Shown: positions 25,653 through 29,178, numbered from the stretch's first letter. The stretch is DNA of 32,000 nucleotides from Deinococcus radiodurans R1 = ATCC 13939 = DSM 20539 (GCF_000008565.1 NC_001263.1:1057360-1089359), one strand, 5' to 3'. The notes: generated by a model from the sequence alone, not told the origin. Made by a program: numbers and translations.

Positions 25653-26798
25653 GTGACGCGCCTGACCCGGTATGTCACCCGCGAGCTGTTGCCGCCGCTG
25701 CTGGCGGGGACACTGCTGTTCACGGCCATTCTGAGCTTCGGTTACTTCTTCATTTCCAGTCAGTGGCTCAGCGGGGTGCCGGTGTCGCTCATCGCCCGCT
25801 GGATCGGCTACCAGCTCCCCGACACGTTGGTCAAGGTGCTGCCGATGGCGGTGGTTCTGATGACAGTGGTGGCCTTCGGACGCATGAACACCGAGCGCGA
25901 ACTCGTGGCGGTGCAGGCGGGGGGCATCGGCCTGGGACGGGTCACGCGTCCGGCGGCGGTGGTCGGGCTGCTCGTCACGGCGCTGAGCGTGTGGCTGAGC
26001 CTCTGGGTCGCGCCCCGCGCCAACGTGGAGACGCGCGGGCTGTACTGGGACGCCCTGACCGGCGCCGGCCTCTCACAGCTCGTGGGCAAAACGGTGGACC
26101 TGGGGCAGGGCCTGACCCTCGCCATGCAGGGCTACGACGCAGGAGCCCGCCAGATGCAGGGCGTGCGGGTGGAAAAGTGGGACAAGGACAATTTCCGTCA
26201 GGGCATGGTCGTGTTTGCCGACGCGGGCAAATTTGAAGGCAACCAGCTTTCGCTGACCGGCTATCAGGTCTACCGGGTAGACTACGCGGCGGCGGCGGCG
26301 CTCTCGGGGGTGGCCGACAACGACCCGGCGGCCTTCCGCGAGGCGGTGCAAAAAGTCTTTCCGCTGGTGCAGGTGCCGGAGGACAGGAACGCGGCGCTCA
26401 ACCTCGACACCGGCCTCTCGCGCAAGCAGACGCTGGCGCAGTACGCCGACGCGATTGGGGCCGACGCGGAGGGCTGGCCGGAGCTCATCACCAAGCTGAC
26501 CGCGCCGGGAGTGCCGCAGTCCGAGCGTGACGCGGCGCGGGTCAACCTCAACCGCAAGCTGGCGCTGCCCTTCGCCAATCTGGTGCTGGTGCTCGCCGCG
26601 CTGCCCTTTGCCCTGCGCTTCGGGCGCACGCTGGGGGTGAGTCTGGGGGTCGCGCTCGTCATCGCGGTGGCGTACTACCTGCTGTTCAGCGTGGGCCTGA
26701 CGCTCGCGGGGCTGCTGCCGGGGCTGCCGGAACTCGGCGTGTGGCTCGCCAACATCGTCTTCGCGCTGGGCGGCCTGTGGCTGCTGAGGCGTGCATGA
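25653..26798 (+). CDS. LptF/LptG (YjgP/YjgQ) family permease, 381 aa
   Basis: (V)TRLTRYVTRELLPPLL... N-terminus, three TM helices, a ~180-aa periplasmic beta-jellyroll-sized insert, then three more TM helices. GTG 25653 preferred as start; TTG 25614 is possible. Confidence 0.85.
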   Translation: MTRLTRYVTRELLPPLLAGTLLFTAILSFGYFFISSQWLSGVPVSLIARWIGYQLPDTLVKVLPMAVVLMTVVAFGRMNTERELVAVQAGGIGLGRVTRPAAVVGLLVTALSVWLSLWVAPRANVETRGLYWDALTGAGLSQLVGKTVDLGQGLTLAMQGYDAGARQMQGVRVEKWDKDNFRQGMVVFADAGKFEGNQLSLTGYQVYRVDYAAAAALSGVADNDPAAFREAVQKVFPLVQVPEDRNAALNLDTGLSRKQTLAQYADAIGADAEGWPELITKLTAPGVPQSERDAARVNLNRKLALPFANLVLVLAALPFALRFGRTLGVSLGVALVIAVAYYLLFSVGLTLAGLLPGLPELGVWLANIVFALGGLWLLRRA

Positions 26799-27976
26799 GC
26801 GGTGGGGAAACGGGGCGCACCCTGCGCGCACTGTTCATGTCGGTGTCGCTGGGGGCCGGGCACGACCAGGCGCAGCAGGCGGTCAAACAGGCGTTCGCCG
26901 AGCGCGGCGTGGAGCTGCTCGGCGCCGAGCACGACTCGGTGGAGTACCTCAGCACCTTTGAGCGCAGTTTCACGGTGGACCTCTACGAGTTTGAACTGCG
27001 CTACGCGCCGTGGCTCTACCGGGGCTTTTACTGGCTTACCGACCAGGACCAGCCCTGGAACATCATCAGCCGCATGTTCACCTGGCTGGGCATGGGGGCC
27101 TTCAAGGACGAACTGCGCGAGCTGCGGCCCGAAGTCGTCATCAACAGCTTCTGGGCGCCCGCCGCCGTGTGCGACACCCTGCGCGCGCAGACCGGGCAGC
27201 GCTTTCTGAACTGCCTCATCGTCACCGACTACCGGGCGCACCTGCACTGGGCGCGGCGCGAGACCGACCTGCTGATGGTGGCCTCGGAGGAAACGCGGCG
27301 GCAAATGCTGGAGCGCGGCGTGCGGCCCGAGCAGGTGGAGGTGACGGGCATTCCCATTTCCCCGGCCTTCCGTGAGGTGCTCGCCGCCGACCGCTGGGCG
27401 CTGCGGGCCGAACTGTTCAGCGAAATGAGCCTGCGCCCCGGCGTGCCGCTGCTATTGCTCTCGGGTGGGGGCCGGGGCCACTACGCGGCGGCGGCGGACG
27501 TGCTGACCGAACTCGGCAACCTGGGCCGCGCAGTGCAGGTGCTCGTGCCCGCCTCGAGGCAGGGCGAAGGCACCGAAACCATCGGCGGGGCGACGGTGCA
27601 TCACCTCGGCTTCCGGCGCGACCTGCCCCGCTTGCTGGCGGCCTCCGACCTCGTGGTCGGCAAGGCGGGCGGCCTGACGGTGGCCGAGGCGACGGCTCTC
27701 GGCGTGCCGCTCGTCATCTACGCGCCGATTCCTGGTCAGGAAGAACACAACGCCGACTTTCTGGAACGCCACGGTGCCGGGCTGTGGGCCAGAGCGCGCC
27801 ACGACGTGCGTCCGCTGGTGCTGCGCGCCCTCGACCCCGCCGAACACGCCCGCCTGAGCGCCGGAGCGCGGGCGGTGGGCATTCCCGACGCGGCAGACCG
27901 GGTGGCGGGGGCCATCCTGCGGCGGCTGGGCGATGGTCTGGGAGATGAACTGGGAGACAGTAGGGGACCGGCATGA
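26795..27976 (+). CDS. GT28 glycosyltransferase, MGDG-synthase/UgtP-like diacylglycerol glycosyltransferase, 393 aa
   Basis: N-terminal ...SVSLGAGHDQAQQAV..., C-terminal ...LVVGKAGGLTVAEATALGVPLVIYAPIPGQEEHNADFL.... The ATG overlaps the upstream stop (ATGA). Confidence 0.85.
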   Translation: MSGGETGRTLRALFMSVSLGAGHDQAQQAVKQAFAERGVELLGAEHDSVEYLSTFERSFTVDLYEFELRYAPWLYRGFYWLTDQDQPWNIISRMFTWLGMGAFKDELRELRPEVVINSFWAPAAVCDTLRAQTGQRFLNCLIVTDYRAHLHWARRETDLLMVASEETRRQMLERGVRPEQVEVTGIPISPAFREVLAADRWALRAELFSEMSLRPGVPLLLLSGGGRGHYAAAADVLTELGNLGRAVQVLVPASRQGEGTETIGGATVHHLGFRRDLPRLLAASDLVVGKAGGLTVAEATALGVPLVIYAPIPGQEEHNADFLERHGAGLWARARHDVRPLVLRALDPAEHARLSAGARAVGIPDAADRVAGAILRRLGDGLGDELGDSRGPA

Positions 27977-29178
27977 AACGCGGTGTGCGCGGGCTGCTGC
28001 TGGGAGCCGCGCTGTATATCGGCCTGCCTTACCTCCTCGTGCAGGTCGGCAACCTCGGCCTCGTCCGCGAGGGGCGGCGCGCCCGCCGCGAGGTGGCGCT
28101 CACTTTCGACGACGGCCCCGACCCGCAGACGACCCCGGCGGTGCTGGCCGCTCTGCGCGAGGCGGACATGCACGCGACCTTCTTCGTCATCGCAGGGAAA
28201 GCACAGGCGCACCCTGACCTGATTCGGCAGATGCTGGAAGAGGGACACGAGGTGGAGGCCCACGCCGACAAGCACGTCCACGCCTGGATTCGCACGCCCT
28301 GGGGCGCTGCGCTCGACCCCCTGCGGGCCGTGCGCGCGGTGGGAGCCATGACGGGGCGTCCCGTTCGCTTTCATCGCCCGCCACACGGCGCTTACACGCT
28401 GAGCACTTGGCTGGGACAGCGGCTCGCCGGGGTGCGCGGCGCCCACTGGAGCATCGAGGGCTGCGACTGGCACCCGGAGTCCATCCCGGACACGGTGCGC
28501 GAACGCCTCGCCGCGCTGCTCGTTCCCGGCGCGGTCATCGTCCTGCACGACGCGGGGCCGGGGGCGCGGGTGACGGTGCCGCTGCTGCCGTCGCTGCTCG
28601 CTGACCTGAAGGCGCGGGGCTACCGCTCGGTCACGCTGGCCGAACTGGGCGGCGCGGCGCCGCAGGACTGGCCGGGCCTCAAGCGGCGTGGGTTTCTGGC
28701 GCTGGACGCGGTATTCGACCGCCTCGGCCACATCCACTTCGCGGGCGGGCGGGCCGACAACCTCTTTCGCATCGCCCGGGTGCCGTTTCCGCTGGAAGGC
28801 GCGCGGCTGGCAGATGGTACGCCCATCCCGCACGGCGCCCCGGCACTCGAATTTCACGTCAACAACCCCATTCTGGTGGACCTCGGCCCCCGCGCCTCGG
28901 TCCGGCAGGCCCGGCGCGAGGACTTCCGGGTGGTGGCCCGCGAATTACAGACGCGACCCGAATACGCCGACGTGGGGTACGTGTTCTGCCTCTCGGCGGT
29001 GTCGCCGCTGCTGGGGCTGCTGGGCTTCGAAAACCACGACCTGCCCGCCGCCGACGCCCGCCGCCTGCGTCGCTGGGCCAACGTGCTGCGCCGCGCCTAC
29101 GGCAACGACCCGAACGCCAAGGCCCCAAGGCTCAGCGTGCTGACGCGGGAGGAGTTTTTGGCGTTATATGGGTCGTAG
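27973..29178 (+). CDS. polysaccharide deacetylase (NodB/CE4) with N-terminal TM anchor and ~170-aa C-terminal extension, 401 aa
   Basis: LTFDDGP and GHEVEAH motifs, ...RPPHG.... The ATG overlaps the upstream stop (ATGA). The TAG stop coincides with the start of repeat copy D. Confidence 0.85.
   Translation: MKRGVRGLLLGAALYIGLPYLLVQVGNLGLVREGRRARREVALTFDDGPDPQTTPAVLAALREADMHATFFVIAGKAQAHPDLIRQMLEEGHEVEAHADKHVHAWIRTPWGAALDPLRAVRAVGAMTGRPVRFHRPPHGAYTLSTWLGQRLAGVRGAHWSIEGCDWHPESIPDTVRERLAALLVPGAVIVLHDAGPGARVTVPLLPSLLADLKARGYRSVTLAELGGAAPQDWPGLKRRGFLALDAVFDRLGHIHFAGGRADNLFRIARVPFPLEGARLADGTPIPHGAPALEFHVNNPILVDLGPRASVRQARREDFRVVARELQTRPEYADVGYVFCLSAVSPLLGLLGFENHDLPAADARRLRRWANVLRRAYGNDPNAKAPRLSVLTREEFLALYGS

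Follow-up and report, generated by a model that had tools for sequence, protein, structure and literature searches.

The window analysed here, a stretch of 32,000 nucleotides of the Deinococcus radiodurans R1 genome, contained fabZ followed by genes for an LptF/LptG-family permease, a GT28 glycosyltransferase, a two-domain CE4-YkoP protein and a methyltransferase (Table 1). The permease, GT28 and CE4-YkoP reading frames were each open, and both ATGA overlaps that had been claimed from the sequence alone were found, at 26795..26798 (ATG 26795 over the permease stop codon TGA 26796-26798) and at 27973..27976 (ATG 27973 over the GT28 stop codon TGA 27974-27976). They were also kept in relatives: among 20 related loci the GT28-CE4 junction showed a 4-nt overlap in 14 and a 1-nt overlap in two, while the permease-GT28 junction showed a 4-nt overlap in nine, and the overlaps are not an accident of the D. 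radiodurans genome. In each of the 20 related loci holding the module, fabZ was the gene directly 5' of the permease gene, and the TIGR01750 match of the window fabZ exceeded the cut-off of 155 bits over residues 154-287 of ORF 24566-25441.

Table 1. Genes and protein features of the module, with positions in the window
Feature	Residues	Position	Strand	Basis
fabZ (3-hydroxyacyl-ACP dehydratase)		25025..25441	+	TIGR01750, 180.6 bits
LptF/LptG-family permease ('LptFGx'), 381 aa		25653..26798	+	PF03739
GT28 lipid glycosyltransferase, MGDG-synthase/UgtP/HexS type, 393 aa		26795..27976	+	PF06925, GT28_C
CE4 deacetylase + YkoP, membrane-anchored, two-domain		27973..29178	+	Pfam, NCBIfam
TM helix of CE4-YkoP protein	7-25	27991-28047		
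CE4 deacetylase domain	36-225	28078-28647		
YkoP domain	about 241-401	28693-29175		
SAM-dependent methyltransferase		29334..30074	+	Methyltransf_25, E 7e-18

The permease matched PF03739 (LptF_LptG) over the complete profile (positions 1-353 of 353, E 2.8e-70, 237.6 bits vs cut-off 27.9). Six hydrophobic segments were identified by a hydropathy scan (residues 16-34, 58-76, 101-119, 303-321, 327-345 and 360-378), TM3 and TM4 being separated by a loop of about 180 residues, and the family, the 3+3 layout and the large insert read earlier from the sequence were all recovered. Assignment as LptF proper (TIGR04407, 128.4 bits vs cut-off 230) or LptG proper (TIGR04408, 123.5 bits vs cut-off 240) was rejected. 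According to work in E. coli, a conserved Glu of the coupling helix docks on LptB. The coupling-helix stretch of the permease aligned with LptF of the solved LptB2FG structures (6mjp, 5x5y), and both Glu were kept in an E-x-E stretch after TM2.

Three LptF/LptG-family genes were present in the genome, a separate tandem lptF-lptG pair and the window permease, which is the orphan third member of the family. Only one LptB was above the cut-off genome-wide (327 bits), about 1.05 Mb from the window, in line with the earlier remark that no LptB-type ATPase gene lies within it, and this single gene is consistent with sharing between the permeases. A search for lpt and lpx genes, which the sequence-only reading had recommended, revealed OstA-domain genes besides LptB and the LptF-LptG pair; neither an LptD barrel nor LpxC was found in the genome, and with LpxC absent, LPS cannot be the cargo of the permease. 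Known Lpt systems use an F/G heterodimer, and in E. coli LptFG acts as an extractor of outer-leaflet lipid, not as a flippase. The cluster encoded one permease gene, not an F/G pair, with no LptC-like gene and no flippase gene.

The GT28 protein contained an MGDG_synth domain (PF06925, E 4.1e-49, 167.3 bits vs cut-off 25, residues 23-188) and a Glyco_tran_28_C domain (PF04101, 34.6 bits vs cut-off 22, residues 266-333), so the proposed resemblance to MGDG-synthase/UgtP enzymes was confirmed, and it was the only PF06925 gene in the genome. Its best NCBIfam model was diglucosyl-DAG synthase (NF010135, 151.9 bits vs cut-off 500), which makes it a member of the family and not a UgtP/YpfP orthologue. 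It was not MurG-like, a possibility raised earlier, since it scored 48.6 bits against the TIGR01133 cut-off of 250 and the true murG was identified elsewhere in the genome (G000:C1:640241-641386, 357.7 bits).

The third protein had one N-terminal hydrophobic helix and was modelled by AF2 with a pLDDT of 92.5. Its CE4 domain was matched by Polysacc_deac_1 (PF01522, E 2.3e-31, 108.8 bits, residues 36-155), all five CE4 motifs were intact in alignment A1 (TFDDG, HADKH of the H-x3-H form, RPPHG, DW and LHD), and the fold matched PdaC, Bc1960 and PgdA. This is the membrane-anchored NodB-type deacetylase with an extra C-terminal domain that had been described before, while the YkoP, GNAT-like identity of the extra domain had gone unrecognised. 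YkoP was assigned through PF22790 (E 9.5e-9, 35.1 bits vs cut-off 27, residues 241-369); the nearest atlas clusters to the domain were YkoP clusters, and a profile of the domain found 1131 representatives. Modelled alone, the domain gave a pLDDT of 90.6, and all 50 matches listed in each of two independent fold searches were GNAT acyltransferases, with moderate scores (Z 8.2 to 5.9, Foldseek E 7e-3). They included long-chain N-acyltransferases, namely the teicoplanin GlcN acyltransferase 4mfk, FeeM, LasI and Rv1347c. No GNAT protein in the PDB was found by the YkoP sequence profile, and no canonical Q/RxxGxG/A CoA-binding (pyrophosphate-binding) motif was seen by eye in alignments A1 and A3. 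In these alignments a Glu-x-His pair was invariant between phyla, and a Gly-Phe motif was likewise kept. Such a GNAT-like domain suggests a further step after deacetylation. The topology of the Deinococcus CE4-YkoP protein was ambiguous, with basic residues on both flanks of the TM helix; where the charge bias was clear, the domains were placed in the cytoplasm, and no stand-alone YkoP protein in the alignment had a hydrophobic signal-like N-terminus.

Conservation of the triad as a unit, which had been put forward as a check, was observed with fabZ upstream in Deinococcaceae and in two genera of a second family. The order fabZ-permease-GT28-CE4 on the same strand occurred in all 17 fetched Deinococcaceae loci holding the module (12 with the CE4-YkoP fusion, five with a CE4 lacking YkoP) and in three of the four loci of family f3. 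One LptF/G match abutted the GT28 gene in each of the 22 Deinococcus genomes examined and in the single f3 genome, and a PF06925 match lay at most 2 kb from a CE4 match in about 70 genomes when two profile searches were cross-read. One genome (G112) had no GT28 match and an in-frame stop in its CE4 gene. Five Deinococcus genomes combined a cluster CE4 without YkoP with a separate protein of degenerate CE4 and intact YkoP, which nested inside the cluster-type clade; YkoP was kept as a separate protein after its split from CE4, and therefore both activities were kept. Every lineage in which the complete module was found had no LpxC (0/67 in f1, 0/5 in g8 and 0/1 in g14), and the module was absent from g11, the sole f3 genus with LpxC. 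This complementarity rests on few independent contrasts and is imperfect because neither LpxC nor the complete module was found in Thermus.

Related gene sets were found with other transporters. Of 20 Firmicutes loci, 14 had YkoP fused or adjacent to CE4. GT28 adjoined CE4-YkoP in L136, L138, L144 and L141, although the L141 protein matched GT28 weakly (20% identity, E 4e-14); GT28-MFS-CE4-YkoP was observed in L140 and L145, and MFS-CE4-YkoP in L129. A second module, GT4-x-MFS-CE4(-YkoP), was present in Thermaceae and elsewhere in the D. radiodurans genome. Its MFS protein best matched the LtaA glycolipid flippase model, and its GT4 best matched alpha-monoglucosyl-DAG synthase and GlcNAc-PG synthase. 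The GT-CE4-YkoP chemistry recurs with different transporters. New here are the identification of the extra C-terminal domain as YkoP, the GT28-(MFS)-CE4-YkoP clusters of Firmicutes and the GT4-MFS-CE4-YkoP cluster of Thermaceae and the D. radiodurans genome.

Among known systems, S. aureus ypfP-ltaA has a GT28 glycolipid synthase co-transcribed with the transporter of its product; this transporter is an MFS flippase, and both a deacetylase and a YkoP domain are missing. Closest among the characterised systems are hexSDF and gpgSDF, in which a synthase-deacetylase-transporter logic was experimentally established (PMC10128005, PMC11898633, PMC11483062); as in operons of this type, a lipid GT, a deacetylase and a membrane transporter were combined here in one cluster, coupled by the ATGA overlaps. 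The product of C. difficile hexSDF is aminohexosyl-hexosyl-diradylglycerol, for which a GT of the MGDG-synthase family and a CE4 deacetylase are used (PMC10128005, PMC11898633), and like the window module hexSDF places both in one operon with a transporter. HexS, of the same GT family as the window GT28, adds HexNAc to a monohexosyl glycerolipid, which is then deacetylated; by analogy, the window acceptor is more likely monohexosyl-diacylglycerol than diacylglycerol. The two differ in transporter (MprF-like flippase HexF vs LptF/LptG family), in gene order (S-D-F vs F-S-D) and in host, C. difficile being monoderm and Deinococcus diderm without LPS. Neither a YkoP domain, a methyltransferase nor fabZ linkage is reported for hexSDF, and since the amine of the C. 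difficile product stays free, the precedent does not call for any step beyond deacetylation. P. aeruginosa gpgSDF carries out equivalent chemistry on phosphatidylglycerol (PMC11483062), producing GlcN-PG through a GlcNAc intermediate by the same synthase-deacetylase-flippase logic, but with a different acceptor and a predicted flippase outside the Lpt family. The NCBIfam model that bears the name of this synthase, GlcN_PG_synth, resembled the GT4 of the second module and was absent among the NCBIfam matches of the window GT28.

An Lpt-family permease would take the flippase slot here, as Caulobacter crescentus LptF2/G2 do for a sphingolipid, which they move with the LptB of LPS transport (bioRxiv 10.64898/2026.04.12.717747). 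In Caulobacter, too, the LptF/G paralogues are encoded among the genes for making a lipid. Export of this non-LPS lipid depends on them, and they work with the housekeeping LptB. There a heterodimeric pair with an LptC paralogue handles a sphingolipid in an LPS-producing proteobacterium, whereas the window has one orphan gene without a cluster LptC-like gene, an LPS-less host and presumably a glycoglycerolipid cargo. For the order of chemistry, the Nod pathway (NodC/NodB/NodS/NodA/NodIJ) proceeds through GlcNAc transfer, CE4 deacetylation, optional N-methylation, N-acylation and ABC export, and the teicoplanin GlcNAc deacetylase and N-acyltransferase Orf11* follow a like order, the structure 4mfk being among the YkoP fold matches. 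Their substrates are a chitooligosaccharide and a glycopeptide, not a membrane lipid, and NodA is neither a YkoP nor a GNAT protein, so both serve as analogy only.

On this comparative basis, the window operon would encode a synthase-deacetylase-transporter system for an amino-sugar glycolipid, adapted to an LPS-less diderm, to which we give a probability of about 0.55. The glycolipid synthesis and export module of the sequence-only reading is supported by its conservation, by the non-MurG character of GT28 and by the presence of Lpt genes without LpxC; diacylglycerol itself is the less likely acceptor. At the cytoplasmic face of the inner membrane, GT28 would glycosylate a glycerolipid, most likely monohexosyl-diacylglycerol as for HexS, with an N-acetylhexosamine (probably GlcNAc, donated by UDP-GlcNAc). 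The CE4 domain would then take off the acetyl group, and the fused GNAT-like YkoP would modify the freed amine, most plausibly by N-acylation, which is the weakest step of the pathway. The result would be an N-acyl-glucosaminyl glycolipid like those of Thermus, and the orphan permease, whose most likely role is glycolipid transport, would move it from the inner membrane towards the outer one, probably powered by the single LptB of the genome. Older D. radiodurans lipid papers aside, no N-acyl-hexosamine glycolipid is known to us from Deinococcus. In Thermus, N-acyl-glucosaminyl glycolipids are common neutral glycolipids (PMC3398001, PMC9636437).

It is somewhat unlikely that the pathway stops, like that of HexS and HexD, at a hexosaminyl glycolipid with a free amine made by GT28 and CE4, with YkoP being lipid-binding, regulatory or scaffolding instead of an acyltransferase, or moving a non-fatty-acyl group such as a short acyl or an aminoacyl group. 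Enzymes that transfer aminoacyl groups can also have a GNAT fold, which would suit such a role, as would the moderate fold scores of YkoP and its lack of a sequence-level GNAT match. Free amines are carried by the hexSDF and gpgSDF products (PMC10128005, PMC11483062) and by the Thermus phosphoglycolipid PGLN (PMC9636437). However, the invariant Glu-x-His pair and the Gly-Phe motif are kept across phyla and YkoP was kept as a separate gene when split from CE4, and its pairing with CE4 in Firmicutes (fused or adjacent in 14 of the 20 loci) suggests that the two enzymes act in succession.

The permease might also be a general exporter of envelope lipids or other substrates in Deinococcota, serving bulk outer-membrane lipids together with LptB and the OstA-domain proteins. 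Its operon position would then stem from co-regulation, or be the relic of an lpx/lpt/fabZ cluster in an ancestor, and would not point to a cargo of its own; we regard this as unlikely. An orthologous orphan was present in all three families sampled, and the Thermaceae copy (33-39% identity) was unlinked to GT28, CE4 or fabZ, so the permease may have a more general cargo. The fabZ linkage recalls lpxD-fabZ-lpxA clusters, of which it is typical. An LPS outer membrane in the ancestor of the phylum, as inferred by Antunes et al. (PMC5007114), would also agree with a relic. Against this stand the 4-nt stop/start overlap with GT28, here and in nine of 20 related loci, the gene order kept across two families, and the homologous modules that fill the same slot with lipid flippases, LtaA-like MFS or MprF-like HexF (PMC10128005). 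A non-lipid substrate, with CE4 acting on peptidoglycan or a surface polysaccharide and GT28 on a polyprenol-linked intermediate, is very improbable. The nearest solved structures and best NCBIfam models of CE4 were peptidoglycan or chitooligosaccharide deacetylases, and MurG is also a GT28 enzyme, but the N-terminal GT domain was of MGDG_synth and not MurG type, murG was elsewhere in the genome, and characterised operons of like composition make glycolipids (PMC10128005, PMC11898633). The cytoplasmic placement of the CE4-YkoP domains by clear charge bias and the stand-alone YkoP proteins, without a signal-like N-terminus in the alignment, likewise point away from it.

The amino-sugar glycolipid pathway could be extended to a triacylated N-acyl-glucosaminyl lipid that replaces lipid A in Deinococcaceae and some relatives, with YkoP as a new lipid N-acyltransferase family that also supplies the third-chain enzyme of Thermus GL1/GL2. 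This extension is doubtful, and it places the use of the operon after the loss of lipid A synthesis. Lpt-family genes persist in Deinococcus and Thermus, whose outer membrane lacks LPS but contains unusual glycolipids. In a genetically tractable host, the operon joins an Lpt-family permease, by position and by translational coupling, with a glycolipid synthase and a deacetylase, a link that offers a testable route for outer-membrane supply in LPS-less bacteria. The uncharacterised YkoP family gains CE4 as a conserved genomic partner and a likely role as an enzyme. For the attachment of the amide-linked third chain in Thermus glycolipids, whose enzyme is stated to be unidentified (PMC9636437), YkoP is a concrete candidate.

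The methyltransferase gene was directly 3' of the deacetylase gene in 13 of 20 module loci and about 2 kb further downstream in a 14th, and is a frequent, not universal, downstream member of the cluster. Its GTG start at 29334 was placed from 246-aa orthologues. All its NCBIfam matches were sub-threshold (daptide MTase 3e-21, NodS 7e-5), and in the proposed pathway it may add a methyl group.

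The permease, GT28 glycosyltransferase and CE4 deacetylase genes downstream of fabZ formed a real and conserved feature, which is a predicted hexSDF-type amino-glycolipid operon with an Lpt paralogue as its transporter. The sequence-only reading had described the three genes correctly in every checkable detail, including the open reading frames, the Pfam families and the ATGA at both junctions, by which a start codon overlaps the stop of the preceding gene. The permease had a 3+3 layout of six hydrophobic segments with a loop of ~180 residues between them, and the LptF coupling-helix motif was kept, which fits the use of the genome's single LptB; the N-terminus of the deacetylase was a single hydrophobic helix. 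The GT28 gene was the only PF06925 gene in the genome. A MurG identity, which the sequence-only reading had named as evidence against a glycolipid role, was ruled out, since this enzyme scored 48.6 on the murG model versus 358 bits for the true murG elsewhere in the genome. In the fabZ frame (24566-25441) the FabZ domain match began at residue 154, after ~150 open codons, and the true start was probably near 25000-25025.

Location of the three-gene unit and related features (plain coordinates, window; G000, the D. radiodurans genome; L numbers, fetched loci)
Feature	Location	Strand	Support or remark
Permease ORF, LptF_LptG	25653-26798	+	Pfam E 2.8e-70, full profile
GT28 ORF, MGDG_synth and Glyco_tran_28_C	26795-27976	+	Pfam E 4.1e-49
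Deacetylase ORF, Polysacc_deac_1 then YkoP	27973-29178	+	Pfam E 2.3e-31; YkoP E 9.5e-9
Short GT2-family glycosyltransferase, then TetR-family regulator	30390-31049 and 31107-31835	-	just downstream of the cluster, opposite strand
Short repeat, core CTGACCCTCTACCC, nested hairpins	25506-25519, 25624-25637, 29202-29215		both sides of the three-gene unit
Two adjacent OstA/LptD_N-type genes	G000:C1:2318152-2319858 (L012-L014)		domain matches
Second module: CE4, LtaA-like MFS, GT4	G000:C1:1229099-1233986 (L082:5099-9986)	-	same genome
GT4-x-MFS-CE4-YkoP, CE4 and YkoP fused	L062-L069, L078-L080, ~4900-9200 each		conserved cluster in Thermus, Meiothermus and relatives
YkoP protein behind CE4-like domain	L071, L073, L075, L077; L081:16130-17182		five other Deinococcus genomes

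Of the 121 sampled Deinococcota genomes, 117 had a homologue of the CE4-YkoP protein, and the neighbour genes were placed by tblastn in 36 fetched loci. The conservation of the triad as a unit, on which the sequence-only reading depended, was borne out: the 17 Deinococcaceae loci holding the module all had fabZ-permease-GT28-CE4 in this order and on a single strand. Of these, 12 had the CE4-YkoP fusion and came from five genera, and in the other 5 the CE4 protein was without YkoP. A second family had the same order in 3/4 loci, from genera g8 and g14. In 13/20 loci the gene directly after the module encoded a SAM methyltransferase. The GT28-CE4 junction was a 4-nt overlap in 14/20 loci and a 1-nt overlap in 2/20, and the permease-GT28 junction was a 4-nt overlap in 9/20. 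When the coordinates of two genome scans were cross-read, ~70 genomes had a PF06925 match no more than 2 kb from their CE4 match, the exceptions being one fragmented assembly and the Deinococcaceae genome G112. One of three LptF/G matches abutted the GT28 gene in 22/22 Deinococcus genomes and in the one genome of the second family examined. G112 (genus g2) had no PF06925 match and carried an in-frame TGA in its CE4 homologue (G112:C8:25397-26239), so that the module looks to have decayed jointly.

The sequence-only reading had also proposed a search for lpt and lpx genes, which gave in the D. radiodurans assembly (3.28 Mb, four pieces) three LptF/G-family genes, namely the window copy and a tandem pair ~1.35 Mb away, one LptB above the curated cut-off (327 bits vs 240) and two adjacent OstA-domain genes, possible LptA/LptC-like bridge components. 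Neither LpxC nor an LptD barrel was found in this genome. LpxC was found in none of 67 Deinococcaceae and none of 23 Thermus genomes; it was present in 13/13 genomes of genus g7, in g9, g10 and g11, and in 3/4 genomes of family f4. The complete module occurred only in LpxC-less lineages (Deinococcaceae, g8 and g14), and the genus of the second family with LpxC was without the module. Thermus was without both. As the contrasts are few and non-independent, this pattern is suggestive only.

In C. difficile, hexSDF encodes a glycosyltransferase of the MGDG-synthase family, a CE4 deacetylase and an MprF-like flippase, and the product, aminohexosyl-hexosyl-diradylglycerol, is made from a monohexosyl lipid via an N-acetyl intermediate (PMC10128005, PMC11898633). 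The same chemistry is performed by P. aeruginosa gpgSDF with phosphatidylglycerol as acceptor (PMC11483062). The sphingolipid locus of Caulobacter encodes LptF2/G2/C2; sphingolipid export depends on them, and they bind the LPS LptB (bioRxiv 10.64898/2026.04.12.717747). The window operon had the enzyme logic of hexSDF and gpgSDF and, like Caulobacter, an Lpt paralogue, but in an LPS-less diderm, with the YkoP domain as its addition to both ideas. The (N-acyl)-glucosaminyl-glucosyl-diacylglycerol scaffold is common in Thermus (PMC3398001), and its acylating enzyme is stated as unidentified (PMC9636437); statements in PMC3398001 and PMC9189128 were the source for Deinococcus lipid structures. The observation gains in value from the N-acylation hypothesis for YkoP and from the proposed connection to the Thermus glycolipids.

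GT28 is an inverting family in CAZy, so a beta-linked sugar would be expected. In the proposed route, GlcNAc would be added by GT28 to a glycerolipid, probably alpha-glucosyl-diacylglycerol made by a GT4, then the sugar would be deacetylated by CE4 and the amine modified by YkoP, with the (N-acyl)-glucosaminyl-glucosyl-diacylglycerol scaffold as the result if the modification is N-acylation; the product would perhaps be methylated by the methyltransferase and exported by the permease. An extractor of LptFG type would still require a flippase. By the positive-inside rule the catalytic domains of CE4-YkoP were predicted to be cytoplasmic in the orthologues of Thermaceae and the second family, and ambiguous for Deinococcus. 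To our knowledge N-acyl-hexosamine lipids have not been reported from Deinococcus. The families, the synteny, the rejection of MurG and the parallels with known systems support glycolipid synthesis and export, as the sequence-only reading had it, as far as computation can go.

All five CE4 motifs were intact in the alignment of the CE4-YkoP protein, and its whole AF2 model (pLDDT 92.5) matched only CE4 enzymes in Foldseek, through the N-terminal half, so the YkoP domain (residues 228-401) was modelled on its own (pLDDT 90.6). GNAT-superfamily acyltransferases then made up all 50 matches listed by Foldseek and all 50 listed by an exhaustive structural scan, among them the long-chain N-acylating enzymes teicoplanin glucosamine acyltransferase, FeeM, LasI and Rv1347c. 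The scores were moderate (Foldseek best E 7e-3; structural scan Z 8.2 to 5.9) and a profile of the domain gave nothing meaningful against PDB sequences, with no link to GNATs at the level of sequence, therefore the domain is named GNAT-like and not a proven GNAT. A weak point of the proposal is that the YkoP function is deduced from resemblance in fold and from the fusion of the genes.

A word-based search for homologues of the YkoP domain returned four matches, all close; the family comprised 1131 representatives at E <=1e-3, as CE4-YkoP fusions of ~400-450 aa or stand-alone proteins of ~180 aa, for which the sources had no names beyond 'polysaccharide deacetylase family' and 'YkoP family'. 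A Glu-x-His pair, the Gly before it and a Gly-Phe were invariant or nearly so across phyla in the alignments. In five Deinococcus genomes the fusion was split: the cluster CE4 was active-looking and ended before the YkoP domain, and a second protein elsewhere had degenerate CE4 motifs and an intact YkoP domain. The DD, HxxxH and LHD motifs were missing from the four paralogues that were aligned (L071, L073, L075 and L077), and in the domain tree the YkoP domains of the paralogues nested within the cluster-type clade. That these genomes keep both parts is evidence, at the level of sequence, that CE4 and YkoP may do separate and necessary jobs.

The same chemistry genes were found with other transporters. 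In the second module of D. radiodurans the MFS protein matched the LtaA glycolipid flippase model best, and the GT4 matched those for alpha-monoglucosyl-DAG synthase and GlcNAc-PG synthase best, none of these scores reaching its cut-off; the divergently transcribed protein carried its YkoP domain behind a degenerate CE4-like N-domain. The Thermaceae cluster is a candidate for the enzymes that deacetylate and N-acylate glucosamine in the GL1/GL2 glycolipids, or for PGLN formation. YkoP was present in 26/201 sampled Firmicutes genomes, and of 20 fetched Firmicutes loci 14 had CE4 next to YkoP or fused with it; GT28 lay directly beside CE4-YkoP in 4 (one a weak GT28 match, L141), and the orders GT28-MFS-CE4-YkoP and MFS-CE4-YkoP occurred in 2 and 1. 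In the loci found by a genome-contig scan with an Alicyclobacillus CE4-YkoP protein the gene stood alone among unrelated genes, and these loci were uninformative. The recurrence in Firmicutes and in the second Deinococcota module makes the chemistry genes a cross-phylum unit with a variable transporter slot, which is occupied by MFS in monoderms and the second module and by the LptF/G-family permease in the window module.

The Thermaceae orthologue of the orphan permease, the LptF/G-family gene outside the tandem pair, was not linked to GT28 or CE4 genes. A conserved permease-GT pairing in Thermaceae was rejected, as a GT4 directly followed the orphan permease in one Thermus genome but the four further Thermaceae loci had none there. 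Directly or up to ~2 kb upstream of the orphan gene was a conserved gene of ~370 aa without Pfam match (L086:5877-6992, homologues in L087-L090).

The fabZ-permease gap was 211 bp in D. radiodurans and was considered as a sign of a separate operon, but it was 0-100 bp in relatives, and here both this gap and that before the methyltransferase, which is likewise short in related species, were filled by copies of the short repeat. L046, from the closest relative, had the GT2 gene near the cluster as well. A fourth copy of the CTGACCCTCTACCC repeat was at 6716-6729, giving 4 matches in the window versus 0.02 expected by chance.
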